Origin: Dehalococcoidia bacterium
Lineage (GTDB): Bacteria; Chloroflexota; Dehalococcoidia; Lucifugimonadales; Australimonadaceae
DNA: 64,000 bases
Assembly (NCBI GenBank): GCA_965248455.1
Contig: OZ252105.1
Span: 2,682,722 to 2,746,721 of the forward strand
Reading direction: 5' to 3'
The position numbers were made by a program, and so were the translations under genes. Below the pieces are notes generated by a model, which was not told the origin of the DNA, ran no database searches, and saw only the letters and a program-made list of their open reading frames with translations. Shown in pieces: positions 16,236 to 64,000 of the stretch; the stretch's first letter is position 1; each line of letters starts with the position of its first letter.

Positions 16236-17312
16236 ATGACCGGGAGTTTCCACATCAGAGAAGAAGACGCCGTCCGCGTGATGGCTGACCCCCTCCGTGA
16301 GATGGTAACCGCGCTGTTCGAGAGGGCCGGCGTGCCCCAGGACGACGCTCGCCTCGCCGCTGATGTCGTCATTGCTGCCGACCTGCGCGGCGTCGACAGC
16401 CACGGTGTCTCCAACATGCTCAAAGTTTACCTCGACCGCTACCTCGACGGTACGCAGAACCCAACGCCCGACTGGAAGATCGTGCGCGAGCGCTCCGCGT
16501 CCGCCAACATAGACTGCGACCGCGGCCTCGGCATCATCCTCGCGCCCAAGGCGATGCAGATCGCCATCGAGAAGGCCCGTGCGTGCGGCGTCGGCGTCGT
16601 TACGCTGTTCAACAGCGGGCACGTGGGCATGGCGGCCTATCACGCGATGCTTGCCCTCGAGCACGACATGATAGGCATGTGCATGACGGCCGCAGGCCCC
16701 GCCGTGCTTCCCACCTTTGGCCGCATCCCCCGCCTGGGAACCAACCCCATCGCCATAGCTGTCCCGACGCTCAACCAGCGTGCGTGGGTATTCGACATGG
16801 CGACGAGTGTCGTGCCGGTCAACAAGGTGCGCAACGCCCGCAGGATGGGCACGCTGCTGCCCCCCGGCGTTATCGCCGACAGCGAGGGCACGCCCATCAT
16901 GGAGCCCACGCCCGTGCCCGCCGACTTTCAGCTGCTCCCCCTCGGCACCGATCGCGGCGCAGGCTCGCACAAGGGATACGGACTCGCAGCTGCGGTCGAC
17001 ATCCTCTGCTCCGTGCTCGCCGGCGCTGACCACGGTATGCGTTCCGGACGCCAGATATTCCGCCACTACGTCGCCGCCTACGACATCGACGCGTTCAGCG
17101 ACGTCGGTGAGTTCAAGGCGCGCATGGACGATTTCATCACGGAGCTGAAGGCCACTCCCCCCGCTGCCGGACACGAGCGCGTGATGGTCGCCGGAGAGCC
17201 CGAGTGGGAAGCCCTCGACGAACGCTCCGTGCGAGGCATACCCCTCCACCACGATGTCGTCGACTGGCTCAGAGACGCATGCGCCGAGTTCGGCGTCGAT
17301 TGCAACATCTGA
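16236..17312 (+). CDS. Ldh_2 family (malate/L-lactate/sulfolactate dehydrogenase type 2) oxidoreductase
   Basis: 358 aa; DLRGVDSHGV, GTNPIAIAVP, GSHKGYGLA hallmark strings. Confidence 0.85.
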   Translation: MTGSFHIREEDAVRVMADPLREMVTALFERAGVPQDDARLAADVVIAADLRGVDSHGVSNMLKVYLDRYLDGTQNPTPDWKIVRERSASANIDCDRGLGIILAPKAMQIAIEKARACGVGVVTLFNSGHVGMAAYHAMLALEHDMIGMCMTAAGPAVLPTFGRIPRLGTNPIAIAVPTLNQRAWVFDMATSVVPVNKVRNARRMGTLLPPGVIADSEGTPIMEPTPVPADFQLLPLGTDRGAGSHKGYGLAAAVDILCSVLAGADHGMRSGRQIFRHYVAAYDIDAFSDVGEFKARMDDFITELKATPPAAGHERVMVAGEPEWEALDERSVRGIPLHHDVVDWLRDACAEFGVDCNI

Positions 17313-19022: not shown

Positions 19023-20597
19023 TTGCCGTCGGAGGCAATCGTGTTCGACACGCTGATAACCAACGGCAGGATCATCGATGGCACCGGCAGGACATGGTTC
19101 CATGCCGCCGTGGGCATCGAGGGCGAGACGGTGACCGTCATGCAAGGCGATGTGTCAGCCGTTGAGGCGCATCGAACCCTCGACGCTACGGGCCTCATCG
19201 TCTGCCCCGGATTCATCGACATGCACTCCCACTCGGAGTTCGCGCTGCTCACGAACCCGCGCCACGAGCCGAAGGTGAGCCAGGGCGTCACGACTGAGGC
19301 GCTTGGGCAGGACGGCCTCTCCTATGCCCCTATCTCCGACGCCAACCGTCCTCACCTCGTCGACTATCTCGCCGCCGTCAATGGCCGTCCGCCCGAAGGA
19401 ATCGGATGGACATCGGTCGCGTCGTTCCTGAACCTGTTCGACGGCGCGTCGTCGTGCAACGTCGTTTTCTTCGTTCCCCACGCCGCGCTCCGACTCGAAG
19501 CGATGGGCTGGGCGAACCGCCTGCCCACCGACGCGGAACTCAACCGGATGCGGGAGCTCGCAACGGAAGGTATGCGGGACGGCGCATTCGGGTTCTCCAC
19601 CGGTCTCACCTACGTCCCCAACGTCTACAGCGATACGCACGAACTGACTGAGGTCTCCCGCGCCGTCGCGCCGTACGGCGGCATCTACGTCACCCACACC
19701 CGCTACGGGTTGGGCGATCGCCTGCTGGACCCGTTCCGCGAGGCGGTCGCCGTCGGCAGGGAGTCCGGCGCGCCCGTCCAGATATCCCATTACCACAACC
19801 CGGTGCAGGGCATGGGCGAGAAGATGATCGCTCTGGTGGACGAGGCCAGAGCTAACGGCATCGACGTTACGTTTGACCAGTATCCGTACCCTGCCGCCAG
19901 CACCATCCTCCTCTCGCTCATCCCGCCGTGGGTGCACGAGGGCGGCCCCGCGCGGTTGCTCCAACGCATCGGCGAGAGGCGGGTGCGCGACGAGATAGCG
20001 AACGACGTCTACCCCCAATGGGGAGGCTCGCTAGCCGATTACATGTTCGCGCACGTCGGCTCCGCAAAGAACAAGGAGTGGGAAGGACGTTCCCTGGAGG
20101 ACATGGCTCGTGCTCAGAGCAAGCGCATGGTGGATACGATCTGCGACCTGCTCATCGAGGAACGTCTGGACGTGGCGTTCGTGGCGCGCACCGGGAACCC
20201 GGAGAACATCCGCGCCATCATGCAGCACCCCGCGCAGATGGCAGGTAGCGACGGTCTGATGACCGGCGACATGCCCAATCCTCGTACTTACGGCACATTC
20301 CCCTATCTGCTTGGGCAAGCCGTTCAGGACGGAACGCTCCGCCTGGAGGATGCCGTCCACAAGATGACCGGCGCCCCGGCCCGCCGTTTGGGTCTGCCCG
20401 ATCGCGGCATCCTGCGCAACGGCATGAAGGCAGACGTGGTGCTGTTCAACCCGGACACGATTCGCGCCGAGGCCACCTTTGAAGACCCCAAGCGGCTGGC
20501 GACGGGTATCGAGTACGTCTTCGTGAACGGAACGCCGGTCTGGAACCAGGGTCAGCACACGGGCGCGCTCCCCGGACGGGCGCTCAGGAAGTCCTAG
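19023..20597 (+). CDS. N-acyl-D-amino-acid deacylase (D-aminoacylase) family amidohydrolase
   Basis: FDTLITNGRIIDGTG...CPGFIDMHSHSE; 524 aa. Alternative start GTG 19041. Confidence 0.85.
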   Translation: MPSEAIVFDTLITNGRIIDGTGRTWFHAAVGIEGETVTVMQGDVSAVEAHRTLDATGLIVCPGFIDMHSHSEFALLTNPRHEPKVSQGVTTEALGQDGLSYAPISDANRPHLVDYLAAVNGRPPEGIGWTSVASFLNLFDGASSCNVVFFVPHAALRLEAMGWANRLPTDAELNRMRELATEGMRDGAFGFSTGLTYVPNVYSDTHELTEVSRAVAPYGGIYVTHTRYGLGDRLLDPFREAVAVGRESGAPVQISHYHNPVQGMGEKMIALVDEARANGIDVTFDQYPYPAASTILLSLIPPWVHEGGPARLLQRIGERRVRDEIANDVYPQWGGSLADYMFAHVGSAKNKEWEGRSLEDMARAQSKRMVDTICDLLIEERLDVAFVARTGNPENIRAIMQHPAQMAGSDGLMTGDMPNPRTYGTFPYLLGQAVQDGTLRLEDAVHKMTGAPARRLGLPDRGILRNGMKADVVLFNPDTIRAEATFEDPKRLATGIEYVFVNGTPVWNQGQHTGALPGRALRKS

Positions 20598-22033: not shown

Positions 22034-22194
22034 CGTCGTCCCCGCGCAGGCTCAGGTCCCTTCTCCCTCGAGGGGAGAAGGTTAGGATGAGGGTGACGGG
22101 GGATGGGTGCAGGGGCGGTTCCCCTCCGTCGTTCCCGCGAAGGCTCAGGTCCCTTCTCCCTTGAGGGGAGAAGGTTAGGATGAGGGTGACGGGG
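22034..22194. repeat. two direct copies of a palindromic unit: (CGTCGTYCCCGCGMAGG)CTCAGGTCCCTTCTCCCTYGAGGGGAGAAGGTTAGGATGAGGGTGACGGGG
   Basis: Copies at about 22034-22101 and 22126-22194. Each holds the hairpin CCCTTCTCCC/GGGGAGAAGG. Confidence 0.85.
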
Positions 22195-22209
22195 CGGGGA
22201 CAAGGGTGT

Positions 22210-22450
22210 GCCCAGCGTAGACGATAGGGAATGCAACGAAATGCAACCAAATGCAACTGAATTAAAGGTTTCGCCACTCCTGGCCACTCCTGGCGAGGCC
22301 AACCAAGGCCACAACCAGGGCCACCTGGCCCAGTGCCTACGAGTGAGCGGAGGGCCAAACGAGGCCACGGTGGCCTCATTCCCAGCCTCGCCGCGAGGAG
22401 TAAACGAGGCCAAACAGGGCCAAATAGGGCCAGAGGTCGACCCCCCTGTC
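22210..22450 (+). repeat. ~240-bp element X (GAAATGSAAC mini-repeats, AT-rich core GAATTAAARGTTT, GCCRCTCCTGGCC, several GAGGCCA/AAGGCCAC motifs)
   Basis: Aligns by eye along its whole length with the reverse complement of 32881-33115. Confidence 0.8.
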
Positions 22451-22554
22451 CCCCATCGCCCGCGACCACGACGAGGAATGAGTCAAAATGAGTCAGGGGT
22501 TGACCCCCCTCACTCCTGGATCGGACAGGGAGTGACTCACAAGTATGGATAGCC

Positions 22555-22910
22555 CCAACCGTCACCCCCGCGAAGGCGCTCAGATCCCCTCGCCCTCTGG
22601 GAGAGGGTTAGGGTGAGGGTTCGGAAATGGGTCGAAATGGAAGGAAATGGAAGCGAATTAAAAGTTTGCCGCTCCTGGCCGCTCGTAATGAACCCGCCCC
22701 AACCGTCACCCCCGCGAAGGCGCTCAGATTCCCTCGCCCTCTGGGAGAGGGTTAGGGTGAGGGTTCGGAAATGGGTCGAAATGGAAGGAAATGGAAGCGA
22801 ATTAAAAGTTTGCCGCTCCTGGCCACTTGTAATGAACCCGCCCCAACCGTCGCCCCCGCGAAGGTGCTCAGACCCCCTCGCCCTCTGGGAGAGGGTTAAG
22901 GTGAGGGTGC
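22555..22910. repeat. 144-bp tandem repeat, about 2.5 copies
   Basis: The CAGAT landmark recurs at 22581, 22725, 22869. Each unit is the hairpin CCCTCGCCCTCTGGGAGAGGGTTAGGGTGAGGGT plus GGAAATGGGTCGAAATGGAAGGAAATGGAAGCGAATTAAAAGTTTGCCGCTCCTGGCC. Confidence 0.9.
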
Positions 22911-22973
22911 CCCCCGCGAAGGCGGTCGGATCCCTTCTCCCTTGAGGGGAGAAGGCTATGATGAGGGTGAAGC
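22910..22973. repeat. third copy of the CCCTTCTCCC/GGGGAGAAGG palindromic unit
   Basis: CCCCGCGAAGGCGGTCGGATCCCTTCTCCCTTGAGGGGAGAAGGCTATGATGAGGGTGA. Confidence 0.8.
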
Positions 22974-23074
22974 CTCAGTGATGGCCCCGAATGGCCCAAT
23001 TTCCCGCACGGAGTGGACTCATCCGCTGTCAGGACTGGGGCGGAACCGATACCCTGTAGTAGGAATAGCGCGAG

Positions 23075-23500
23075 ATGATCTACGTCACCGACGACATACA
23101 ATTGGCAGAGCACGAGCTGGAGTTCCGGTACGTTGCGTCCTCAGGCCCCGGCGGCCAGAACGTCAACAAGACCGCCACCGCCGCGCACCTGCACTTCGAC
23201 GCATCGTCGTCAGCCTTGCCCGACGATGTCAAACGCCGTCTGCGGAGCGTCGCGGGCAATCGCCTCACCGGCGACGGCATGCTCGTCATCAAGGCGCAGC
23301 GTTACAGGAGCCAGGATCAGAATCGGAAGGACGCTGTTGACCGCCTCGTGAGCATCCTGCGGCGCGCTGCCGCCCCGCCGCGCCCGCGCCGCTCGACGAG
23401 GCCGACGGCGCAGTCCGTCCAGCAGAGGCTCGAGGAGAAGCACCAGCGGTCACGCATCAAGCAATCGCGGACGCCCGGGGATGACGATGGCGGCGAGTAG
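23075..23500 (+). CDS. arfB: alternative ribosome-rescue factor / peptidyl-tRNA hydrolase ArfB
   Basis: 141 aa; GGQ motif SGPGGQNVNK and a basic C-terminal tail (RPRRSTRPTAQSVQQRLEEKHQRSRIKQSR). Confidence 0.88.
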   Translation: MIYVTDDIQLAEHELEFRYVASSGPGGQNVNKTATAAHLHFDASSSALPDDVKRRLRSVAGNRLTGDGMLVIKAQRYRSQDQNRKDAVDRLVSILRRAAAPPRPRRSTRPTAQSVQQRLEEKHQRSRIKQSRTPGDDDGGE

Positions 23501-23575
23501 GCCAACGTGGGCTCAGCACAGACTCGCCGGGGCTGACGCAGTGTTTACGAACGAAACAACCCAGAGGGAGCGGCG

Positions 23576-24754
23576 ATGCCACGGTTAGAGGATCTGCCGG
23601 AGATCACACGGCAGGGGATGCTCAACTTCCCCGCGTTCGACCATGACGACGCGCCATGCGCGCCCATGGCCAAGCCGCTCCGAGAAGCAAGGATCGCTCT
23701 CGTCACGACGGCTGGCCTGCACCTGCGCGACGATGAACCGTTCTCGGGCGGAGACGAGAGCTACCGCGTCATACCCTCCGCGTCGCCCGCCTCCGGCATC
23801 ATCCAGAGCCACATGAGCATTGGATTCGACCGCGCCGCGTTCATGCGGGACGTGAACGTTACATTCCCCATCGACAGGCTCCGCGAGCTGGCGGCGCGGG
23901 GAGAGATCGGCTCACTGACCGAGAACTTCTACTCGTTCATGGGCGCGCAGCGCAGCCCCCGCCGCATCGAACAGGAGACCGGGCCGGAGGTGGGCAGACG
24001 CCTGCTCGACGAGAGCGCGGACGCGGTGCTCCTCACCCCCACCTGACCCAACTGCACGCACACGGTCAGTGTGCTTGCGCGGGCGATCGAGGAAACAGGG
24101 TTGCCAACCGTTGCGATTGTGCTCGTGAAGGAGCACGCCCAGCGGGTGAAGCCGCCGCGCGCCCTCTGGACTCCCTTCCCCTTCGGATTCGCGCTCGGCA
24201 AGCCGGACGACCCTGCGTTTCAGCATAAGGTCATCGCGGGAGCGCTCGCCCTCTTGCAGGAGAACGCAACGCCCGTGCTCGCGGAGTTCCCGGAGGATGC
24301 CGGGGCGCCCCCGCTGTTGCTTCAGGCAAGCGCGGCGCAGGCTGATGCCGCCAACCGCCACACCGATCCCGCCGACGAGATCACCGCCCTTCGTGGCTAC
24401 TATGAGCGATGGGTGGACGAGCACGACGGGCGCACGATGGTCGGTCTGAGCGGGGTGCCCCAACGCCGCTTCCGTGGCCTCGTCCGCTACCTGCAGGCGT
24501 TCGCCGCGGGAGAGAATCCGTCGGATGACCTCGCGCCGGAGGGCATGGCGTCCCCGCGTTTCGTGCGGCTCGCAGCGGACGATATGAAGGCGTTCTTCCT
24601 GGAGGCGCGCATGTCCCAACGCCCGGACGAGCGCGACAACGACCTGCAACGGTGGCTCTGGTCGGAGACGGCGATGGGCAGCCTCCTGGCGTCGGTCGCC
24701 GAACGCCTCGTCGCGCAGGGCGACGAGCGCACCGCGCAGGGCATAGCTCGCTAG
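23576..24754 (+). CDS. GrdB/PrdB-family (glycine/sarcosine/betaine/proline reductase selenoprotein B-like) protein with in-frame TGA (Sec) at 24044-24046
   Basis: ORFs 23576..24046 and 24071..24754 share a frame. The 24 nt between them have no stop, and there is no SD before GTG 24071. Read-through gives ...LLTPT-U-PNC-THTVSVLARAIEETGLPTVAIV... (392 aa). Confidence 0.7.
24053..24079 (+). promoter_or_regulatory. putative bacterial SECIS hairpin
   Basis: GCACAC(24058-63)-GGTCA-GTGTGC(24069-74), extended by 4 more pairs after one mismatch. The stem starts 7 nt after TGA and the apical loop starts 18 nt after it. Confidence 0.55.
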
Positions 24755-24790
24755 CCTGCGGCCCGTGCCCGCGAACGGGCGGTACCGCCG

Positions 24791-29048: not shown

Positions 29049-30461
29049 TCAGAGCATGCTGGTTTCCTCGAGGGGCAGTTCGAATATGAACCGGCTGCCT
29101 GCGCCTGGCGTGCTTTCGGCCCACAGACGTCCGCCGTGCGCCTCGACCAGTTGTTTTGCAATAGACAGACCGAGGCCAACGCCTCCCGTTGCTCTGGCGC
29201 GGGACGGGTCGGCGCGGTAGAAACGGTCGAACAGACGTGGGAGAAACTCCGGGGAAATTCCCGGGCCTGAATCGGCGACGGTTATCCGCGCCATTCCGGA
29301 GGCACGGGCAGCCGACAGCATCACGCTGCCGCCTGACGGCGTGTGCCGGATGGCGTTCTCCACGAGGTTGTGAATGACCTGGTCGACCCGGTTCCGGTCG
29401 ACGAGGAGCGTCAACGGTGAAGCGGAGGGGTGCGCCTCGATGGTGACGCCTGCGCTCTTCGCTCGGGGGCGGAACGCCGCTTCGGCCGCAACCAGGATAT
29501 CGTTGGTGTCGTGAGGCTGGGGATAGAGAGGAAGCGCGCCTGCTTCCGCCAATGTGAGGAGCCGCAGGTCTTCCACCACGCCTGTAAGGTGGGCGATCTG
29601 CCGGTGGAGCGTTTCGATGGTGGTCTCGTCGGCCCGTAGAATGCCGTCGCCGATGGCCTCGACGTAGCCCTGAACGTTGGCGAGTGGAGTGCGGAGTTCG
29701 TGGGCGATGTCGGCCATCAGATTACGGCGCTGCAGCTCCGCGCGCTGGAGTTCCTCCGCCATGGCGTTGAACGTTTCGCCGAGTTGTCCCACGTCGTCTC
29801 GAGTCGCGGGCGCAACGCGTTGTGAGAGGTCGCCCTTTCCAAACTGCACGGCGGCTGCGGACAGATTCCGGATGGGCGATAGAACCCGGCGCGAGATGAA
29901 GGCTATCAGCAGGACACCGGCGCCCCCCACGGCCAGACCTGTCCAGATGAGCGACCGGTTGACTCTTGTGATGAGGTCTGATTCCGACGGCTCTTCGTGG
30001 GATTCACCGGAGAGGGGACCGTCCAGGATGAATCGTATGCTGCCCACCTTCTCTCCGTCGCTGAGGACGGGCATGCTTACGGTGGAGGAAGGCTCGTGTT
30101 CTTCTCCTGACTCAGACGCCTTCTGCTCGTGCTCTTCTCCTGCCCGAAGCGCTTCCTGGCCATGGGAATCGCCGAGGACGCGTCCATGATTGTCCGAGAG
30201 GACGATTTGCCACCCGTAGAGGAAGCTCACCTGTTCGAGCACTGGCTCGACGCCTTCCCAGCTGCCGTGGGCGTCGAAATAGGCTGCGAACGTGGCTTGG
30301 ACGCGCGCGGCGCGGACGTCTTCCCGCTCATGCTGCTGCTGCTCGGCTTCCGCTTCGAAGGCTGTGCTCACGAACCAGCTCACTGCGCCTAGGGTGAGAG
30401 CAAGAACCAACACGAAACTCGCTATGAGGCGGAACTGGAGGCTGAACGGCCAGTTACGCAT
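29049..30461 (-). CDS. sensor histidine kinase (TM-periplasmic-TM, HAMP, HisKA, HATPase)
   Basis: H-box IAHELRTPLANV, N/G boxes NLVENAIRHTP, DSGPGI, GGVGLGLSIA. Confidence 0.9.
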   Translation of the reverse strand: MRNWPFSLQFRLIASFVLVLALTLGAVSWFVSTAFEAEAEQQQHEREDVRAARVQATFAAYFDAHGSWEGVEPVLEQVSFLYGWQIVLSDNHGRVLGDSHGQEALRAGEEHEQKASESGEEHEPSSTVSMPVLSDGEKVGSIRFILDGPLSGESHEEPSESDLITRVNRSLIWTGLAVGGAGVLLIAFISRRVLSPIRNLSAAAVQFGKGDLSQRVAPATRDDVGQLGETFNAMAEELQRAELQRRNLMADIAHELRTPLANVQGYVEAIGDGILRADETTIETLHRQIAHLTGVVEDLRLLTLAEAGALPLYPQPHDTNDILVAAEAAFRPRAKSAGVTIEAHPSASPLTLLVDRNRVDQVIHNLVENAIRHTPSGGSVMLSAARASGMARITVADSGPGISPEFLPRLFDRFYRADPSRARATGGVGLGLSIAKQLVEAHGGRLWAESTPGAGSRFIFELPLEETSML

Positions 30462-31143
30462 CGCCGAACCGGTATCCGCTGCCGTAGGCGGTGTGAATGT
30501 AGCGGAGGTTCCCTGAGGCTGTGTTCAGTTTGCGGCGGAGGTTGTGGACGTGCGAGTCAACTGCCCTGTCGAAGCCTTCGAAATCGTAACCGTAGACTCT
30601 GCTTATGATCTCCTCGCGGGAGAAGACTCTACCGGGTTCCCGCAAGAACGTTACGAGGAGGCGGAACTCCGTCCGCGTGAGGCTCAGCAGTGCGCCGTCG
30701 ATGGATGTCTGTTGGCTCTTGATGTCAACGTTGATCCCCTCGTATGAGATGAAGGAAGGGCCTCTGTCCATGGCGTCCCGCGCCGCGCGGCGGAGTACGG
30801 CGCGCACCCGCGCCGCAAGCTCTCTTGGGGTGAATGGTTTGGTTACGTAGTCGTCTGCGCCCATGTCGAGGCCGCCCAGCCGATCTTCCTCCTCAACGCG
30901 GGCGGTGAGCATGATGATGGGCGTTTGGGAGTTCTGCCGGACGCGCCTGCACACTTCGAGACCGTCCATCCGCGGGAGCATCAGGTCGAGGACGATCAGG
31001 TCGGGCGCGTCCTCCTGGGCAAGCCGGAGCCCTTGGACGCCGTCGGAAGCAGTCAGCACCTGGTGGCCGTCGCGCACGAGGTAGAGGCGGATGAGTTCGG
31101 TGGTGTCAGGGTCGTCTTCTATGATGAGGATTCTGCTTGGCAT
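30454..31143 (-). CDS. OmpR/PhoB-family response regulator
   Basis: ILIIEDD...DLIVLDLMLP receiver domain plus winged-helix C-terminus (RTEFRLLVTFL...YIHTAYGSGYRF). 8-nt overlap with the kinase gene. Confidence 0.9.
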   Translation of the reverse strand: MPSRILIIEDDPDTTELIRLYLVRDGHQVLTASDGVQGLRLAQEDAPDLIVLDLMLPRMDGLEVCRRVRQNSQTPIIMLTARVEEEDRLGGLDMGADDYVTKPFTPRELAARVRAVLRRAARDAMDRGPSFISYEGINVDIKSQQTSIDGALLSLTRTEFRLLVTFLREPGRVFSREEIISRVYGYDFEGFDRAVDSHVHNLRRKLNTASGNLRYIHTAYGSGYRFGDA

Positions 31144-31221: not shown

Positions 31222-31968
31222 TCAGGCGCCGTCGTCGTGCCCGCCCCGGTCGTCACCGTCGCGTTCCGCGGAGTTCTCGCGTTCGTTGCTGTCGTGCTCG
31301 CCTGAATCTTCCGAGCCGCTGTCACCGCCGCCGACTTCCGCGTGGGCGCTCCAGGTGTCAAATGGTTGCGCGGAAGCGGGGAGAGTTACGTCCATGACCC
31401 CGCCGGGCGGGAGGTCAGCCGGAGTGGTAGGGCCAAGTTCGATGCCATTGGAGAGGTGAATCTCGATGCGTACGCGGTTGAGGGTGGCATCGGTGATGTT
31501 CCGTACAGTTCCTGAGAAGACGTTGGCGGCAGGATCGTAAGCGATAATGAGCCGAGAGCCAGCCCGCAGATGGTCGTAGGTCTGTTGTTTGGTCAACTGG
31601 GTCCCCGATTCCTCCCCATCGTCCTCACTCGATTCGCCTGAGCCCGTGCGCTCGTTGGCACCGTGTTCCCCAGAACCTTCCGAGCCGGCGTGCTCACCCT
31701 CGCCGCCACTGGGATCTTCCCTGGAGCCCTCGCGTTCGTTTTCGCTGGCGTCTTCCTTGGTATCTTCGCGCTCGTTGCTGTCGTGCTCACCCGAACCTTC
31801 CGAGCCTTCGGCCTCGCGACCTGCAACTTCATTGCGTTGTGATTCCTCGGCGTGCGTCGTGGCCGGGTTCTCGGAGTCATCGAGGCTGCGGACCAGGCCG
31901 ACGCCCCCGAGAACGACCAACACAACGAGTCCCACGGCTATAGCAGCTATTGTCCATCTCTTCTGCAT
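31222..31968 (-). CDS. membrane-anchored acidic, His-containing repeat protein (hypothetical)
   Basis: ORF 31222..32004; start at MQKRW. One N-terminal TM segment. SEGSGEH(D/G)(S/A)NER-type repeats flank a ~110-aa globular core (YDHLRAGSRLIIAYDP...). Confidence 0.7.
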   Translation of the reverse strand: MQKRWTIAAIAVGLVVLVVLGGVGLVRSLDDSENPATTHAEESQRNEVAGREAEGSEGSGEHDSNEREDTKEDASENEREGSREDPSGGEGEHAGSEGSGEHGANERTGSGESSEDDGEESGTQLTKQQTYDHLRAGSRLIIAYDPAANVFSGTVRNITDATLNRVRIEIHLSNGIELGPTTPADLPPGGVMDVTLPASAQPFDTWSAHAEVGGGDSGSEDSGEHDSNERENSAERDGDDRGGHDDGA

Positions 31969-32125
31969 GAATCCCTCCCTACTGCGTGTTATCAGACATC
32001 CCAAGAGTAGAGAGGGAATATGGAGGGATTGTGGAGAAAGCGGCTGGCCGCATCAGCCGCTTCGCCGCACTTCCGAGTTGCACTCGCCGGAGTTACGCAA
32101 ATGTCCCCGGGGGTGTGGATGGTTG

Positions 32126-32533: not shown

Positions 32534-32544
32534 TTTCGCCGTTG

Positions 32545-32890
32545 CGCTTGGGGCTTCACCCTCATCCTCGCCTGGATTCCAGCCTTCGCTGGAATGACGG
32601 GGACAGGGGGCAGGGATGCGAGGTTCCCGCCTTCGCGGGGGAGCGACGGGGGCCTGCGCCTGCGCGGGAACGACGGACGCGGTTGGTACGACCCTCAGGA
32701 GTGCGTAGGAGTGGTAAAACTTTTATTTCCCGCTCATTTCCGCTCATTTCCTATCATTCCTCTCGTAGATGTTGGCGATGGGGGCTGCACCCTCATCCTC
32801 GCCTGGATTCCAGCCTTCGCTGGAATGACGGGGACAAGGGGGGCAGGGATGCGAGGTTCCCGCCTACGCAGGGGAGCGACGGGGGGGGGT
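32545..32890. repeat. 231-bp tandem repeat, about 1.5 copies, built from three palindromic sub-units
   Basis: CTCATCCTCGCCTGGATTCCAGCCTTCGCTGGAATGACGGGGACA at 32561 and 32792; GGGATGCGAGGTTCCCGCCTWCGC... at about 32613 and 32845; AT-rich AAAACTTTTATTTCCCGCTCATTTCC at about 32716. Confidence 0.85.
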
Positions 32891-33115
32891 TGATTCCTGG
32901 ACCCATTTGGCCCTGGTTGGCCTCGTTTACTCCTACGGTCGAGGCTGGAAATGAGGCCACCCTGGCCTCGTTTGGCACTCCGCTCACTCGTACGCGGTGG
33001 GCCGGCGTGGCCTTGTTTCGATTGTAGTGGCCTTGTTACGAGTGGCCAGGAGCGGCAAACTTTTAATTCTGTTCCGTTTTGTTCCATTTCGTTCCATTTC
33101 CTGTCGTCTACGCGG
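32881..33115 (-). repeat. element X, inverted copy
   Basis: The reverse complement aligns with 22210-22450 (GAAATGGAAC repeats, GAATTAAAAGTTTGCCGCTCCTGGCCACT, CGAGTGAGCGGAG, AACGAGGCCA, GGAGTAAACGAGGCCAA). Confidence 0.8.
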
Positions 33116-33120
33116 GCCGG

Positions 33121-33191
33121 GGTTTCACCCTCATCCTAGCCTTCTCCCCTCAAGGGAGAAGGGACCTGACCGCCTTCGCGGGAACGACGGG
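33121..33191. repeat. inverted copy of the CCTTCTCCCC/GGGAGAAGG palindromic unit with a CCTTCGCGGGAACGACGG flank
   Basis: TCACCCTCATCCTAGCCTTCTCCCCTCAAGGGAGAAGGGACCTGACCGCCTTCGCGGGAACGACGG. Confidence 0.8.
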
Positions 33192-33489
33192 GGCTGAGGC
33201 AGGAACCAGGGTCGGTGGCGCCACCGCCGGGACTGAGTCGTTGGGACGGGGACAGGCTCCGGTGGTGTACCTTGGCTACGCCCGGGATCGGACCGGGTAG
33301 GAGTAGGCCTCGCCACGCTTGTAGGAACCTTGGTGACGTGTGCAAGTGGGTTACACACGTCGGGGGGACGGAACCGGATCCTTTGCTGCAGCATTGGAAT
33401 CATCGTACTCGTTCTCAGGCATATCTGCAACTGTCAGTTGTCGCGTTGATGTCTTTTGCCGTACGGAGCGTCCGGGGGCGTGGGGTGGT

Positions 33490-33545
33490 TGGGGATGGGA
33501 CAGGGATGCGAGGTTCCCGCCTTCGCGGGAACGACGGGGCGCTTT
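33490..33545. repeat. GGGATGCGAGGTTCCCGCCTTCGCGGGAACGACGG palindromic unit
   Basis: Same unit as at about 32613, 32845 and 35565. Confidence 0.8.
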
Positions 33546-52907: not shown

Positions 52908-55157
52908 ATGACTGCTCAACCCACTCGGCACGCCATCGGCGTTCCCGCTCCGCGCGTTGACGGCGTGGACAAAGCAACAGGCCGCGCGGCCTACACCGCC
53001 GATGTTCGTCTGAACGGCGTTCTCTTCGCCAAGACCCTGCGCAGCCCTTATCCCCACGCCCGGATACTCTCCATAGATACGTCCGATGCTGAGGCTCTGC
53101 CCGGCGTTCATGCGGTCGTTACCGGCGCTGACATCTACGATGGGGCCAGGCATGGCCGCGCTGTCGTTGACGTTCCCGTGCTTGCGCAAGGGGTGGTTCG
53201 TTTCATCGGCGAGCAGGTGGCCGCCGTTGCAGCCGACGACGAGGACATCGCGCAGCGGGCGACCGAGCTGATCGCCGTTGAGTACGAGGAGATTCCGGCG
53301 GTTCTGGATATGGACGCGGCGAAGGCGGAAGGCGCCCCGCTCGTGCATGAGAACATGCTGGAGATCAAGGGCTACCCGAAAGAGGTCACCGAGCCGAGCA
53401 ACGTCTACACGGTGTTCGAGTGGGCCAAGGGCGACGTGGAAGCGGGCATGGCCGAGGCCGACGTCATCGTCGAGAACACGTTCACGACGCCTCGCCAGCA
53501 TCAGGCGTACATCGAGCCTCATTCCTGCCTCGTTGTGGCGCACCCGTCGGGCAAGGTGGACGTTTGGGCGGGCAACAAGTCGCCCCATCCGGGCAAGCGC
53601 ATGGTCGCCGTTGCGATAGGCATGGACGCCTCGGACGTGGTGTTCAACCCCGTGACCATCGGCGGCGACTTCGGTGGCAAAGGCTCCGCGATGGACATAC
53701 CCATAGCGTGGATGTTGTCGACGCGGACCGGCAGGCCGGTGAAGTTGGTGTTCGATTACACGGAAGACCTCACATCGGCGAACCCTCGTCACGCTTCACG
53801 GGTGACGATGCGCACCGGCGCCATGCGAAACGGCACGATCGTCGCGCACGATGCGCTCGTGGAGTACAACAGCGGCGCCTATGCGGGGTTCAAGCCGGGC
53901 GGGCACCTGGGAGGCGCGACTGCGGCGGCAGGGCCGTACATGTCAGCGAATACGCGCATCGTTGAGCATCAGGTGTACACGAATAGCGTTCCGTGCGGCT
54001 TTATGCGAGGCCCCGGCGAACCACAGGCGATGTTCGCTCTCGAATCCCAGATCGATTGCCTGGCAGCGGCATTGGGTATGAGTCCGGTGGAGCTGCGCCG
54101 GAAGAACCTCGTAACCGAGGGCGAAGAGGACTCGCTCGGCACGGTGTTCGAGCAGGTGCGTTCGATCGAGACGCTGGATTCAGCGGTAGAGGCTGCCGAG
54201 TACGCCTCTCCTAAACCGTCCCACAGCCGTCTGGCCTACGGCAGAGGAGTTGCCATCGGCGAGCGCGTGCAGGCAGGGGGCGAGACCCATGCCGGAGTAA
54301 CGATGAACCCCGATGGCTCAGTTCTGGTGAACACCTCGGTGTTCGAGCAGGGTACCGGGTCGTATACGGTCATGCAGCAGATCGTTGCCGACGAGCTGCG
54401 GATGCCGCTCGAACGGGTGCGCGTCATGGCGTGGGATACGGCAAGCACGTCGTTCGACTCAGGGATAGGGGGAGCGCGGGTAACGCGCATGGCGAGCGCC
54501 GCAGTCTGGAACGCGGCGCAGGCAGCCAAGGGCGAGCTGTTCAAACTGGCGGCGGATATCCACAGCTGGCCGGAAGAGTCACTCGAAGTGAACGGCCCCA
54601 CGTTGCGCAGAACGGACACGGGCGAGAGCATCGAATGGGCGTCGCTCGTGCAGCGCACCGGCGGGCCTATCGTTGGCTTGGGAGACGTGCAGGACGCGGC
54701 GAAGAACCCGTTCACGTCGTTCACGGCGCAGGTCGCCGAGGTTGCGGTCGACCGCGAAACGGGGCAGGTGCACCTGCTGACGATGACGACCGCGCACGAT
54801 ACGGGGCTTATCTTCAACCCGATAGGCCATCAGGGTCAGGTCAACGGAGGGGTCGTGCAGGGCATCGGCTATGCCTTGCAGGAGAACCTCGCCGTCGAGG
54901 ACGGGCGCGTTACGACCGCGTCGTTCGCGGACTACAAGATCCCGACGATGGCCGATCTGCCGGAGCTTCGCACCGTGCTGCTGGATGAGCAGAACGGCGG
55001 CGGCTGGGGGCCGTATCAGGTGAAAGGCATCGGCGAACAGTCCAACTCCCAGGCCGCGCCCGCGATTGCGAACGCCGTGGCCGATGCGGTTGGCGTGCGC
55101 GTTCGCGACCTTCCTGTGACCGCAGAGAAGGTCTACCAAGCGCTCCACGTTCGGTGA
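52908..55157 (+). CDS. xanthine dehydrogenase/aldehyde oxidase family molybdopterin-binding large subunit
   Basis: 749 aa; N-terminal IGVPAPRVDGVDKATGRAAYTADV, GGDFGGKG, and a C-terminal region (YKIPTMADLP, VKGIGEQS) as in Mo-hydroxylases. Confidence 0.88.
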   Translation: MTAQPTRHAIGVPAPRVDGVDKATGRAAYTADVRLNGVLFAKTLRSPYPHARILSIDTSDAEALPGVHAVVTGADIYDGARHGRAVVDVPVLAQGVVRFIGEQVAAVAADDEDIAQRATELIAVEYEEIPAVLDMDAAKAEGAPLVHENMLEIKGYPKEVTEPSNVYTVFEWAKGDVEAGMAEADVIVENTFTTPRQHQAYIEPHSCLVVAHPSGKVDVWAGNKSPHPGKRMVAVAIGMDASDVVFNPVTIGGDFGGKGSAMDIPIAWMLSTRTGRPVKLVFDYTEDLTSANPRHASRVTMRTGAMRNGTIVAHDALVEYNSGAYAGFKPGGHLGGATAAAGPYMSANTRIVEHQVYTNSVPCGFMRGPGEPQAMFALESQIDCLAAALGMSPVELRRKNLVTEGEEDSLGTVFEQVRSIETLDSAVEAAEYASPKPSHSRLAYGRGVAIGERVQAGGETHAGVTMNPDGSVLVNTSVFEQGTGSYTVMQQIVADELRMPLERVRVMAWDTASTSFDSGIGGARVTRMASAAVWNAAQAAKGELFKLAADIHSWPEESLEVNGPTLRRTDTGESIEWASLVQRTGGPIVGLGDVQDAAKNPFTSFTAQVAEVAVDRETGQVHLLTMTTAHDTGLIFNPIGHQGQVNGGVVQGIGYALQENLAVEDGRVTTASFADYKIPTMADLPELRTVLLDEQNGGGWGPYQVKGIGEQSNSQAAPAIANAVADAVGVRVRDLPVTAEKVYQALHVR

Positions 55158-56443
55158 GACGTCCACAGGAGACCGCTGGCGACCCTGCGCCTGAAGGACG
55201 CCCCGCAGGATCCTTGTCGCATCCGTTCGAGTCGCTGGCCAATGTTCAGTATCGCCGCCTATGGGTAGGCACGTTCTTCACGTTCGCGGCGGGGCAGATG
55301 ACCATGGTTGCGCGTCCGTGGCTCGCCTACGAACTCACCGGTTCGGGGCTGATGCTCGGGTTGGTGGCGATGGCGCAGGGCATCCCCATGTTCTTCATGG
55401 CGCCACTGGGAGGCGTTGCGGCTGACCGCCTTTCGAAACGGACGGTGCTGCTGGTCTCTCAGACGGCGCTGCTGCTCATAGCGGTGAGCCTTGCGGTCGT
55501 TCTCTACCTGGACATCGTGGAGGTGTGGCACCTCGTCGTGTTGGCGCTAGTGCATGGCATCGCCATGCCGTTCAACATGCCGGTGCGGCAATCCTACGTG
55601 CCGGTGCTGCTGCCGCGACGCCTCATCCCCAACGGCGTTGCGCTGCAGGCGTCAGGACGGAACCTGAATCAGGTCGCCGCGCCAAGCGTTGCGGGCATAC
55701 TCTTGGCGATCGACCCGCTGATAGCGTTCGTCACCGTGGCGTCGTTCCACGTGCTGTCGATGGCGATCTCGTTGACGTTCCCCGGCGCGGGGCCTCTGGA
55801 GAAGCGCGGACTCGGCATGCGCGGGGAGCTGCTGCTGGGGTTCCGCTACGTTCTCGCCACGCCGATGCTCCGGTTGCTGTTCGGGATGCTGCTGCTCATG
55901 CTGATCCTGGGGATGCCGTACATGCACCTGCTGTCGGTCTTTCAGGGAGTGCTGGACATCGGCCCGGAGCTGCTGGGGCTGATGTACACAGCGGTGGGGG
56001 CGGGGGGCTTCTGTGGGTCGCTGACGATGGCCTCGTTCTCGCGGCTGGTGCGCGGCCTGCCGCAGTTCGTCATGGGGGTTGGCTTCAGCCTGACGCTCGT
56101 CGCGTTCGCGCTTTCGCAATCGTACCTGATCTCGCTGGGGTTGCTGTTCGTCATGGGTTTCACGCATCAGGCGTACACGACGATAAACCAGACGCTCATC
56201 GTTACGAGAACGGCGCCGGAGTTGTACGGTCGCGTGGCGAGCATCAATCTGATGATGCGCTCGTTCATCACGATGGCGGTGTTGCCCATCGGGGCACTGG
56301 CTGACAGGTTCGGCGCGCCGTACACGCTCGCGGCGTGCGGAGCGCTGCTTGCGGGGCTGCTGCTGCTCATCGGCGCGATCAGGGGCACCGGAATCCCGGA
56401 GGGCGTTCAGGAGGTCAGCTCGACGGCTTCAGCGGAACGCTGA
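55154..56443 (+). CDS. MFS transporter (EntS/DUF894-like)
   Basis: YRRLWVGTFFTFAAGQMTMVARPWLAYELTGS, GGVAADRLSKR. GTGA overlap with the upstream gene; start uncertain. Confidence 0.8.
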   Translation: MRRPQETAGDPAPEGRPAGSLSHPFESLANVQYRRLWVGTFFTFAAGQMTMVARPWLAYELTGSGLMLGLVAMAQGIPMFFMAPLGGVAADRLSKRTVLLVSQTALLLIAVSLAVVLYLDIVEVWHLVVLALVHGIAMPFNMPVRQSYVPVLLPRRLIPNGVALQASGRNLNQVAAPSVAGILLAIDPLIAFVTVASFHVLSMAISLTFPGAGPLEKRGLGMRGELLLGFRYVLATPMLRLLFGMLLLMLILGMPYMHLLSVFQGVLDIGPELLGLMYTAVGAGGFCGSLTMASFSRLVRGLPQFVMGVGFSLTLVAFALSQSYLISLGLLFVMGFTHQAYTTINQTLIVTRTAPELYGRVASINLMMRSFITMAVLPIGALADRFGAPYTLAACGALLAGLLLLIGAIRGTGIPEGVQEVSSTASAER

Positions 56444-56542
56444 GCGCGGGCGCCGTTCCGTTCGAGGCGCGGGCCAGTCGTTGCCCGACAGCGGTACGCT
56501 TCGTTAGACTGCTACCGGTATATCTTCCACGGGGGCAAGCAC

Positions 56543-57919
56543 ATGGACGAGCACATGCGTGACCGTATCGAGGCCGCGCTCAAGTCGGCGGGCGGGCAGT
56601 ACGTGGAAGTCCACGTCGAAGAGGCATCGTCGTCAGCGATCCGGTACCGGGGCAACGATCTGGAAGAGATCGGCCGCGGGAGCGGAGTGGGCGGCAACGT
56701 CAGAGCCCTCGACGGCGGAGGCTGGGGGTTCGCGTCGTTCAACGACCTGAGCAACCTCGAATCGAAGATCCACCAGGCGATTGAGCAGGCGCGCGTCGTT
56801 GGCGGGGAACGCATCGAACTGGCAGAGACGCCCCCTGTCGTGGATCACGTTCCCGCGATCATCGGCCTGGATCCGGGGTCGCTGACGCTTGCTGACAAGA
56901 AGGGCATCCTCGACGAGTACGCCAGCGTTATGATGGGTACGCCGGGCGTCCAGTCTGCGACGGTCGGCTACTCCGACGCTCGCCGCCGGATGGTTTACGC
57001 GAACTCCGAGGGCTCCTACGTCGATCAGGAGCGCATCGACGTCAACCTGCGGCTCAACGCGCAGGCGCGCAACGGCGCCGACATACAACAGTACGGCGTG
57101 AGCCTGGGGAGCCTGGGCGATTTCGAGTTCGTGATGAACCTGCATGAGGACGCGCGAGAAGCCGCCGAGAAGGCCGTCGCGCTTCTGGACGCGCCGGAAG
57201 TGAAGGGCGGCGAGTACACCGTCGTTCTTGATCCTATCCTTGCAGGCGTATTCATCCACGAAGCGTTCGGGCACCTGTCCGAGGCCGATCACATCTACGC
57301 GGAGCCGCGATTGCAGGAGCTGATGAAGCCGGGCAAGCGGTTCGGCGGCGTTCACCTGAACGTGAAGGACGGCGCGACCGTCCCGCGTCCATCGCTGCGC
57401 GGCTCCTACGTGTACGACGACGAGGGCGTACAAGGTCAGGAGACCGACCTGATCCGCGACGGCGTGCTCGTGGGCAGGCTGCATTCGCGGGAGACGGCGG
57501 CGAAGCTCGGCGAGCGCCCCACGGGCAACGCTCGTGCGTTGAACTACCGCTTCGCTCCCATCGTGCGGATGACCAATACGTTCATCGTGCCGGGCGAGAT
57601 GAGTGCGGATGACCTGTTCGCGGACGTGGAGGACGGGCTCTACGTGAAGAGCTGGTACGGCGGTATGACGTCCATGGAGATGTTCACGTTCTCCGCCGGA
57701 GAGGCCTACCGCATCCGGAACGGCAAGATAGCCGAGCTATGCAAGCCCGTGATGTTGTCCGGCAACGTGTTCACGACGCTGCACAACATCGACGGCATCG
57801 CGAACGACCTTGGCATGAACGAGGGCGGCGGCTGCGGCAAGGCGGGGCAGAGCCCGTTGCCCGTCTCCAACGGCAGTCCGCACATCCGCATCCGGCAATG
57901 CCTTATCGGAGGGGCGTAG
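56543..57919 (+). CDS. tldD: TldD-family metallopeptidase
   Basis: 458 aa; HExxxH motif IHEAFGHLSE, C-terminal GGCGKAGQ. Confidence 0.88.
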   Translation: MDEHMRDRIEAALKSAGGQYVEVHVEEASSSAIRYRGNDLEEIGRGSGVGGNVRALDGGGWGFASFNDLSNLESKIHQAIEQARVVGGERIELAETPPVVDHVPAIIGLDPGSLTLADKKGILDEYASVMMGTPGVQSATVGYSDARRRMVYANSEGSYVDQERIDVNLRLNAQARNGADIQQYGVSLGSLGDFEFVMNLHEDAREAAEKAVALLDAPEVKGGEYTVVLDPILAGVFIHEAFGHLSEADHIYAEPRLQELMKPGKRFGGVHLNVKDGATVPRPSLRGSYVYDDEGVQGQETDLIRDGVLVGRLHSRETAAKLGERPTGNARALNYRFAPIVRMTNTFIVPGEMSADDLFADVEDGLYVKSWYGGMTSMEMFTFSAGEAYRIRNGKIAELCKPVMLSGNVFTTLHNIDGIANDLGMNEGGGCGKAGQSPLPVSNGSPHIRIRQCLIGGA

Positions 57920-63949: not shown

Positions 63950-64000
63950 GGCGACGTAGCCAAGTGGTTAAGGCGGAGGTCTGCAAAACCTCTATTCGGC
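63950..64000 (+). tRNA. tRNA-Cys (anticodon GCA), 3' part beyond the window
   Basis: GGCGACGTAGCCAAGTGGTTAAGGCG, anticodon stem-loop GAGGT-CTGCAAA-ACCTC. Confidence 0.75.

Follow-up and report, generated by a model that had tools for sequence, protein, structure and literature searches.

The question raised by positions 23576-24754 of the stretch of DNA analysed here (64,000 nt of contig OZ252105.1 from a Dehalococcoidia bacterium, referred to below as the window) is whether two adjacent open reading frames (ORFs) are two genes, or one gene in which an internal TGA is read as selenocysteine (Sec). The 5' ORF (23576-24046) has an ATG start and encodes 156 aa, the 3' ORF (24071-24754) has a GTG start and encodes 227 aa, and, as the initial annotation had seen, both are in the same frame with only TGA 24044-46 and 24 stop-free nt (24047-24070) between them. 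Reading through the TGA gives a product of 392 aa, ...AVLLTPT-U-PNC-THTVSVLARAIEETGLPT..., which ends at a TAG stop (24752-54). A Shine-Dalgarno-like GAGGGAG can be read at 23564..23570 on the plus strand, 5 nt 5' of the ATG, and there is no purine-rich motif before the GTG at 24071, as had also been pointed out. On the basis of the translation, the homologues and 81 orthologous coding sequences (CDS), the plus-strand segment 23576..24754 is very probably a single gene for a 392-residue selenoprotein with one in-frame UGA, and we put at about 0.9 the probability that it encodes a real Sec-decoded, stand-alone PrdB-like protein.

The Sec region on read-through is ...LLTPT-U-PNC-THTVSVLARAIEETGLPTVAIV..., with the UGA codon (24044..24046, plus strand) providing residue 157 and a TGC codon (24053..24055) providing Cys160, the putative resolving partner in a U-x-x-C motif; the redox pair proposed earlier is present as U157-P-N-C160. 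A search of 5.8 billion proteins gave two classes of match. The main class consists of 227-aa fragments that correspond to the post-UGA ORF, with 60-100% identity and mostly named 'hypothetical protein', and the expectation that standard annotation truncates the gene is borne out by them. The smaller class consists of full-length proteins of about 394 aa (42-47% identity, 91-100% coverage) that carry the JGI name 'D-proline reductase (dithiol) PrdB'. When 13 full-length proteins are aligned, every one has Cys in the Sec column, in the context TPT-C-P-[FVL]-C-T-[HR]-T, and conservation extends to the C-terminal GIAR. As all 13 carry Cys at this column, the homologues are to be seen as single polypeptides with a Cys/Sec column, and not as pairs of separate proteins that end and start at this point, a possibility that the initial annotation had asked to be looked at.

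For comparison at the DNA level one genome per species was scanned, 185,579 species in all. This gave 206 genome relatives, and the comparative counts given below use the best 80 of these together with the window. Almost all of the best 80 are Dehalococcoidia, SAR202 or Chloroflexota metagenome-assembled genomes (MAGs), several of them from marine sponges, and two are labelled Sulfopaludibacter and Entotheonella. To judge from these relatives, the genome of the window is most likely of SAR202 type. TGA is present in the Sec column in 80/80 of these relatives as well as in the window, in the context T-P-T-U-P-[NL]-C-[TS]-H-[TA], and each of the 81 orthologues has exactly one in-frame stop. The CDS is complete in 79 of them, ending G-[LIV]-[AS]-R, and pairwise amino acid identity is 48-99%. 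The true terminators in this set are TAG in 53 cases and TAA in 18, with TGA in only 8. Cys160 is invariant in 93/93 Sec and Cys forms.

The initial annotation had also proposed a hairpin at 24053-24079 with a GGUC-containing apical loop, at the position expected for a bacterial selenocysteine insertion sequence (SECIS). Both the hairpin and its loop are real, and the exact span in the RNAfold minimum-energy structure is 24054..24078 on the plus strand. It has a core stem 24059-24063 / 24069-24073, an apical loop GGUCA (24064-24068) with an invariant GU at 24065-66, and a weakly conserved lower stem 24054-56 / 24076-78, and the energy is -14.4 kcal/mol for the 28-nt hairpin element. The bSECIS criteria (PMC13188914) are an apical loop of 3-9 nt, a stem of 4-16 bp, a minimum free energy of -7.5 kcal/mol or lower, and a G at loop position 1 or 2 with G or U after it, at 16-37 nt from the UGA. 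In the present element the loop has 5 nt and the upper stem 6 bp, the distance from UGA to loop is 17 nt and the energy is as given above, in agreement with all four.

The comparative evidence for the hairpin comes from an ungapped alignment of 81 sequences (column 1 = 24041), 66 of which are distinct. All 81 sequences form the five core pairs (columns 19-23 with 29-33) by standard pairing. At pair 22:30 there is an A-U in 41 of them and a G-C in the other 40, with 0 mismatched, and on a neighbour-joining tree this pair requires at least 4 independent double changes. The loop consensus is N-G-U-N-N, the GU being invariant in the 81 sequences and situated 18-19 nt past the UGA. The hairpin is within coding sequence, and RNA constraint therefore has to be separated from protein constraint by means of synonymous sites. 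For the stem His codon all 66 distinct sequences have CAC and for the stem Val codon all 66 have GTG, with a third-position entropy of zero, so the Val third position is frozen though four-fold degenerate. Without exception, the Ser/Cys codon has at its synonymous third position the pairing partner of the first base in the Thr/Ala codon (32 A:T, 34 G:C). For the flanking fourfold-degenerate codons (Pro, Thr, loop Val, Ala and Arg) the third-position entropy is 1.15-1.8 bits. The hairpin is absent from 5/5 distinct Cys-form DNAs, in which the energy is -3.4 to -7.1 kcal/mol as against -14.4, two to three of the five core pairs are broken and, in 4/5, the loop GU is missing.

Comparative evidence of this kind shows that the UGA at 24044-46 is decoded as selenocysteine 157, with the SECIS hairpin downstream as the element predicted to direct it. 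The contrary explanation, that the TGA is a true stop (in a pseudogene, through sequencing error, or between genuine 156-aa and 227-aa polypeptides) or is read as some other amino acid, can point to the hundreds of records in which the 227-aa ORF is called as a separate protein, and to the absence of visible Sec machinery in the window. It has to contend with a TGA at the identical column in 81/81 genomes, with amino acid conservation of both halves, with Cys forms that are single polypeptides and with a column that aligns to Cys and not to Trp or Gly. Furthermore the second ORF is without a Shine-Dalgarno-like motif and its GTG at 24071 sits within the conserved hairpin, the hairpin itself has both covariation and frozen synonymous sites, and TGA terminates other genes in the window. 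We find this explanation scarcely credible, and the comparative data appear to have effectively refuted it already. The alignment of the Sec column that the initial annotation suggested gave Cys in the homologues and TGA in 81/81, and the SECIS is at the bacterial position predicted for it.

Some observations do weigh against Sec decoding. RNAfold, which had been suggested as a check, reproduces the hairpin, but for the single sequence the fold is not significant (z = -1.37, with 21/200 shuffles folding as well), and it is for this reason only by comparison that the hairpin exceeds chance. Lower-stem pair 16:36 is unpaired in 44/66 distinct sequences and the lower three pairs are poorly conserved. 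The statement that there are no sel genes nearby is confirmed, in that tblastn with E. coli queries found no homologue of SelA, SelB or SelD in the 64-kb window, nor any in 1.7 Mb of related loci except for a DgaE-family hit in one locus (L041), and scans of the window and of the 80 related flanks gave no tRNA-Sec. It follows that for exactly this genome we infer Sec decoding. For related organisms there are published counts in Table S4 of Slaby et al. 2017 (PMC5649159): SAR202 bin16 (MPMJ), the source of an orthologue 81% identical to the present one (L005), has SelA 1, SelB 1 and SelD 1, and SAR202 bin87 (MPNC; L043) has SelA 3, SelB 1 and SelD 1. The COG1921 'SelA' counts in that table may include DgaE-type paralogues, and SelB and SelD are the more reliable markers in these two bins.

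The hit in L041 (2208-3710, plus strand) was rejected as a SelA, as it is a DgaE-family pyridoxal phosphate-dependent ammonia-lyase with a TIGR01437 score of 216 bits as against 50 for true SelA, and paralogues of this type could inflate COG1921 'SelA' counts in MAG surveys generally. At the gathering threshold Rfam finds only tRNAs in the window. One of these, at 63950-64000 on the plus strand, is cut off by the window end (Rfam tRNA, 30 bits, 3'-truncated), and tRNA-Sec is neither excluded nor confirmed by it.

With regard to the genetic code, TGA ends ordinary genes of the window, such as the Ldh_2 gene at 16236-17312 and the MFS gene at 55154-56443, and recoding is therefore site-specific. 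A scan based on in-frame TGA, flank length and GC content at third codon positions (GC3) gave no credible candidate for a second selenoprotein in the window. The same-frame pair at 54989-57919 was considered as a read-through candidate and rejected, since it comprises two complete and unrelated genes, an MFS_3 transporter (55154-56443, plus strand) and a TldD/PmbA peptidase (56543-57919, plus strand), in the same frame with a TGA between them. It was observed also that the long high-GC3 ORFs of the window favour TAG (21 TAG, 11 TGA, 4 TAA), which is unusual for a genome of 63.5% GC and may be a genome-wide preference.

Gene callers split the gene in two because the catalytic residue is Sec, encoded by an in-frame UGA, and the consequence is that in public databases hundreds of relatives appear either as a 'hypothetical protein' of 227 aa or as a truncated N-terminal fragment. 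Once the Sec codon is recognised, a conserved enzyme of 392 aa is recovered, which is present in at least 80 species-level genomes of SAR202/Dehalococcoidia, organisms that abound in sponges and the deep ocean. The gene would also be evidence that SAR202 depends on selenium and so requires this trace element.

The next question is what kind of protein this is. The GrdB/PrdB-family homology proposed from the letters alone is confirmed by two profile matches. The best NCBIfam model is TIGR04483 (PrdB), with 154.2 bits for aa 29-229 on model positions 21-220 of 238, which is short of the equivalog cutoff of 300. PF07355 (GRDB) gives 48 bits against a cutoff of 22 for aa 22-156, which places the protein in the superfamily by profile, and the match ends at the last model position (347/347), one residue before U157. 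Only the C-terminal halves of the GrdB, GrdF and GrdH models match (positions ~205-418 of 431), with 54-68 bits against cutoffs of 602-800. NCBIfam has no model specific for the present family. The offset on TIGR04483 places U157 at about model position 148-149, to be compared in model coordinates only with U151 of Clostridioides difficile PrdB (PMC11229817). The Sec region had been likened to that of the glycine/betaine/proline reductase B subunits (ST-U-GTC), and here the initial annotation has to be corrected: the motif is PrdB-type UxxC and not GrdB-type UxxCxxC or STUG, and in the window protein U-P-N-C-T-H-T contains no third Cys.

AlphaFold2 run on the 13-protein alignment gave a model with a mean predicted local distance difference test score (pLDDT) of 81.4 and a predicted TM-score of 0.81, in which there is an alpha/beta domain at ~1-240, a disordered linker at 242-254 and a helical domain at 258-392. 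Combining the model with TIGR04483 and PF07355, we assign a PrdB-like alpha/beta catalytic domain to aa ~19-229 (23630..24262, plus strand). The variable linker (aa 242-254; 24299..24337, plus strand) is predicted to be disordered, with pLDDT below 50 and gappy, variable columns in the alignment, and is followed by an all-helical, family-specific C-terminal domain (aa 255-392; 24338..24751, plus strand) that ends in a conserved G-[ILV]-[AS]-R. In the model a strand (150-154) precedes U157 and a helix (159-172) follows it, and C160 belongs to the initial turn of that helix. There are two points on the negative side of this assignment, namely that the umbrella subfamily model TIGR01918 gives 62.1 against a cutoff of 65.45, just short, and that Foldseek found no solved structure with a similar fold (best E = 0.015, TM < 0.3).

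The conserved C-terminal helical domain of about 140 aa is a feature that was not part of the initial annotation. Residues ~230-392 match no Pfam or NCBIfam family. The domain alone, searched against 1.84 billion representatives, gave 240 clusters, nearly all of them 200-260-aa proteins with the domain at ~100-230, equivalent to the post-UGA fragment, and a few of them full-length at ~395 aa. None of the 240 clusters has the domain in any other architecture, and as judged from this search it is found in the present family only. A comparison of 79 Sec with 14 Cys forms gives 45 residues that never vary, including U/C157, P158, C160, H49 and eight Arg; those in the C-terminal domain include R273, R300, G301, R331, D336, E343, W360, G389 and R392.

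The initial annotation described the gene as an orphan and as stand-alone. A Pfam scan of the main ORFs from 13.1 to 29.0 kb of the window found no Grd or Prd partner and no thioredoxin system near the gene, in agreement with the earlier observation that grdA/C/D/E, prdA and thioredoxin genes are lacking nearby. When every ORF up to about 9 kb from the gene was clustered for 81 loci, the only universal members were the two halves of the gene itself, for which reason 'stand-alone' is correct. The next most frequent neighbours, ArfB in 26 loci, MFS in 25 and LLM in 25, are all in the clade of the window, and another clade carries Zn-ADH, MscS, RecF and Sir2 instead, so that beyond clade-level synteny there is no conserved operon partner among the 80 Sec loci. 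'Orphan' is apt for the lack of partner genes but not for the protein itself, which belongs to a large family with its 206 genome relatives and 240 C-terminal-domain clusters. Family membership, distribution and context together show it, at the level of sequence comparison, to be a stand-alone branch of the GrdB/PrdB superfamily that is widespread in SAR202/Dehalococcoidia.

It could be argued that this is a genuine PrdB subunit of a D-proline reductase, or of a related amino-acid reductase, with PrdA, PrdH and PrdC encoded elsewhere. PrdB is after all the best NCBIfam match, the JGI label on the Cys forms is 'D-proline reductase (dithiol) PrdB', and there are a D-aminoacylase-like amidohydrolase (19023-20597) and an Ldh_2-family gene within 8 kb. 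However 154 bits is half of what the equivalog requires (300), the protein is 392 aa long with an extra conserved domain whereas PrdB is a single-domain protein of ~26 kDa (25.7 kDa), and natural Cys forms exist whereas the U151C form of authentic PrdB is inactive (PMC11229817). In true systems the PrdA pyruvoyl proprotein, PrdH, PrdC and others are in one cluster with PrdB (PMC11229817), and here neither a pyruvoyl subunit (PrdA) nor PrdH, PrdC or any other prd product is encoded near the gene, and there is no conserved neighbour in 80 relatives. The hosts also differ, being SAR202/Dehalococcoidia MAGs, several from marine sponges, and not Stickland-fermenting Firmicutes. We consider a genuine PrdB subunit very improbable, and by profile scores and gene context it is neither a D-proline reductase nor a glycine reductase B subunit.

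There is nevertheless a likeness to PrdB of C. difficile and Clostridium sticklandii: the alpha/beta domains are homologous over ~200 residues, the two Sec residues are by model coordinates at what is probably the same position (U157 and U151), and both proteins have U-x-x-C, this being given as the PrdB family motif in Table 2 of PMC2398784. The Sec-nucleophile, Cys-resolving chemistry of PrdB is the natural model for the present protein, which by its sequence is a domain-extended, stand-alone variant of the PrdB kind. GrdB, GrdF and GrdH (PF07355, TIGR01917/01918) are in the same superfamily, but in comparison with GrdB the present protein is without the N-terminal ~200 residues, has U-x-x-C in place of U-x-x-C-x-x-C or STUG, and has no grdA/C/D/E genes or thioredoxin system near it.

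The kind is already known, since UxxC selenoproteins named 'PrdB' have been catalogued as abundant in marine metagenomes since 2005. In the Sargasso Sea 'proline reductase PrdB' (pfam07355, UxxC) ranked third in abundance among selenoprotein families, with 42 Sec forms to 1 Cys form (PMC1088965), and in the 2008 Global Ocean Sampling (GOS) analysis there were 235 Sec to 110 Cys forms of PrdB over 38 samples (PMC2398784). Both that family and ours are pfam07355-related, have U-x-x-C, are mostly in the Sec form and are marine, ours for the most part, and the present family is probably the same as the catalogued marine PrdB family or overlaps it, the likeness being one of description. In those papers D-proline reductase function is simply assigned, having been carried over from Clostridium, and they describe no C-terminal domain, absence of PrdA, SAR202 host or gene context; indeed we found no paper that describes the C-terminal domain, lack of PrdA, SAR202 host range or Cys-form context of this subfamily. 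The matter is of some importance for annotation, as the label 'D-proline reductase' mis-predicts a Stickland-type metabolism in organisms without PrdA.

In the case of FarB, the GrdB-like component of the proposed fluoroacetate reductase of Synergistota (PMC10838667), there is a further parallel, as for this GrdB-family selenoprotein a direct Sec attack without a Schiff base, on a carbon with a good leaving group, has been proposed, and the mechanism suggested below follows the same logic. FarB has, in the same operon, a GrdE-like partner, a radical-SAM gene and a transporter, and it supplies the Grd A/C system, whereas the SAR202 gene has no partner.

These comparisons lead to a possible mechanism. 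The U157 selenolate would attack a small substrate, probably one with a carboxylate, at an electrophilic carbon to give a Se-C adduct, Cys160 would then attack the selenium with release of the reduced product to leave a Se-S bond, and a dithiol donor, which might be thioredoxin or a lipoyl protein, would re-reduce that bond. In the Prd system D-proline is bound to the pyruvoyl group and attacked at its alpha-carbon by the Sec of PrdB, and re-reduction of the complex proceeds through PrdC (PMC11229817). As there is no pyruvoyl partner in the present case, the substrate would be expected not to need Schiff-base activation, for which betaine (GrdI is not a proprotein) and fluoroacetate (FarB) are proposed pyruvoyl-independent precedents (PMC10838667). 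The many invariant arginines could fit an anionic, carboxylate-bearing substrate, though we draw this only from their conservation. The basis for the mechanism is analogy with PrdB and GrdB chemistry only, and the existence of natural Cys forms, given that PrdB U151C is inactive, suggests a chemistry less demanding than D-proline reduction; both count against it, and we see the chances of a Sec/Cys reductive mechanism of this type as about even. Any specific substrate class that one might name would at present be doubtful. If the mechanism is of this type, the family is an example of Sec-based reductive chemistry of Grd/Prd type reused, as a stand-alone PrdB module, without the pyruvoyl subunit.

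The main competing explanation is a general thiol- or selenol-disulfide oxidoreductase, similar to thioredoxin, glutaredoxin or peroxiredoxin, that would act on protein or low-molecular-weight disulfides or on peroxides, with no bond cleavage in a small molecule. The U-x-x-C at the N-terminus of a helix in a strand-loop-helix arrangement of the model is what such an enzyme would have, the Cys forms have CPFC, and the sole similarity to the PDB by sequence is a sub-threshold match to a glutaredoxin CPFC motif (E = 0.33). The Thioredoxin_3 profile also matches weakly (E = 0.034, 14.6 bits), which is far below its cutoff of 24.8, and as Foldseek gave no structure of thioredoxin fold we rejected a thioredoxin/glutaredoxin fold, the local strand-CxxC-helix arrangement being all that is common. 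The lack of a conserved metabolic partner at the SAR202 loci, and the fact that the most abundant marine selenoproteins are redox proteins (PMC2398784, PMC1088965), would also suit an oxidoreductase. Against these stand the PrdB homology over 200 residues with 154 bits, the 45 invariant residues including 8 Arg across two domains, which suggest a specific ligand pocket, and the location of Cys forms in catabolic operons. We think a general oxidoreductase unlikely, and the PrdB-like reductive mechanism remains our preference.

The gene contexts of the Cys forms are of interest in this regard. Seven of the 8 are in aromatic ortho-cleavage-type clusters, L085 being the exception. At L081 there are an intradiol dioxygenase, Fe-ADH, SDR, Lactamase_B, MarR, LysR, YCII, a thiolase and two CoA-transferase subunits, and L088, a contig of 4.7 kb, has Lactamase_B, MarR, YCII and LysR only but matches the L081 arrangement. 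L082 has Rieske/VanA, FAA hydrolase and glyoxalase-fold genes. L083 and L084 have LysR, a dioxygenase and MR_MLE, with GcvH, GcvT, DUF1330 and DLH farther away, and L089 has co-directional MR_MLE, DUF1330, PrdB-like, dioxygenase, DLH and Fe-ADH genes. The P0061 locus is also counted among the ortho-cleavage-type clusters. In L086 and L087, which have the same cat-like arrangement, the protein itself is fused to muconolactone isomerase: this fused form (P0083; L086 4504-5994, L087 685-2175) has a C-terminal muconolactone delta-isomerase domain (PF02426), and its gene is divergent from a cluster of LysR, intradiol dioxygenase and muconate cycloisomerase. A glycine-cleavage H-type lipoyl protein is encoded at L082 8199-8600, 8 nt downstream of the Cys form, and at L083 11762-12160, within ~4 kb, and is a possible dithiol electron donor. 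No PrdA partner was seen in the 8 contexts.

One can envisage from this that the family is a pyruvoyl-independent Sec/Cys reductase in which the PrdB module cleaves or reduces carboxylated ring-fission intermediates, for which muconolactone, dienelactone, maleylacetate and their halogenated or otherwise substituted forms would be candidates. The support is that Cys forms are beside or inside clusters for intradiol dioxygenase, muconate cycloisomerase and dienelactone hydrolase, with a maleylacetate-reductase-like Fe-ADH, beta-ketoadipate CoA-transferase/thiolase and an adjoining LysR regulator as further members. In contrast, none of these partner genes is within 9 kb in the 80 SAR202 loci, where dioxygenase, DLH, Fe-ADH, GcvH and DUF1330, and likewise YCII, Lactamase_B, thiolase and CoA-transferase, all gave 0 hits. 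We thus rejected carrying the aromatic context of the Cys forms over to the Sec loci, and it is only for the Cys clade, at ~45% identity, that the ortho-cleavage lead holds directly. For the family as a whole a role in ring fission seems to us a long shot. If it is true, the Cys form of soil bacteria would add a step, so far unrecognised, to catechol, chlorocatechol or hydroxyquinol ortho-cleavage and would possibly be re-reduced by the lipoyl GcvH-like protein, and the SAR202 Sec form a high-efficiency version for degradation of recalcitrant dissolved organic matter. The link of Cys forms to modified ortho-cleavage clusters in any event makes the function of an abundant marine selenoprotein family approachable in culturable bacteria.

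Turning to the surroundings of the gene in the window, an ArfB-type ribosome-rescue factor (23075-23500, plus strand), with an RF-1 domain containing GGQ, lies 75 nt 5' of it, an adjacency retained in 26/81 loci. The other neighbours are a convergent MFS transporter, an LLM oxidoreductase, Amidohydro_3, Ldh_2, Zn-ADH, Amidohydro_2 and a metallo-beta-lactamase-fold gene. A scan for promoter and terminator consensus around the selenoprotein gene gave nothing useful. Between its TAG and the convergent MFS gene there is a GC-rich inverted repeat, GCCCGT-N8-ACGGGC, at 24761-24780, which lacks a T-run and is not among the calls of the terminator scan.

Clusters of palindromic repeats resembling repetitive extragenic palindromes or miniature inverted-repeat transposable elements (REP/MITE-like) are present at 22034-22975 and 32544-33542. 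They include six copies of a ~68-nt repeat with CCCTTCTCCCTCGAGGGGAGAAGG-type inverted repeats, a 144-nt tandem duplication (22552-22839) and two further repeat families near 32.5-33.5 kb, and these REP/MITE-like repeats occupy intergenic space and generate spurious ORFs. A repeat of another kind (family D3) is found in the ORF at 31222-32004 on the minus strand, which adjoins a two-component system (29049-31143) and encodes an N-terminal hydrophobic segment followed by a highly acidic repetitive region with GSEGSGEHD[SA]NER-like units.

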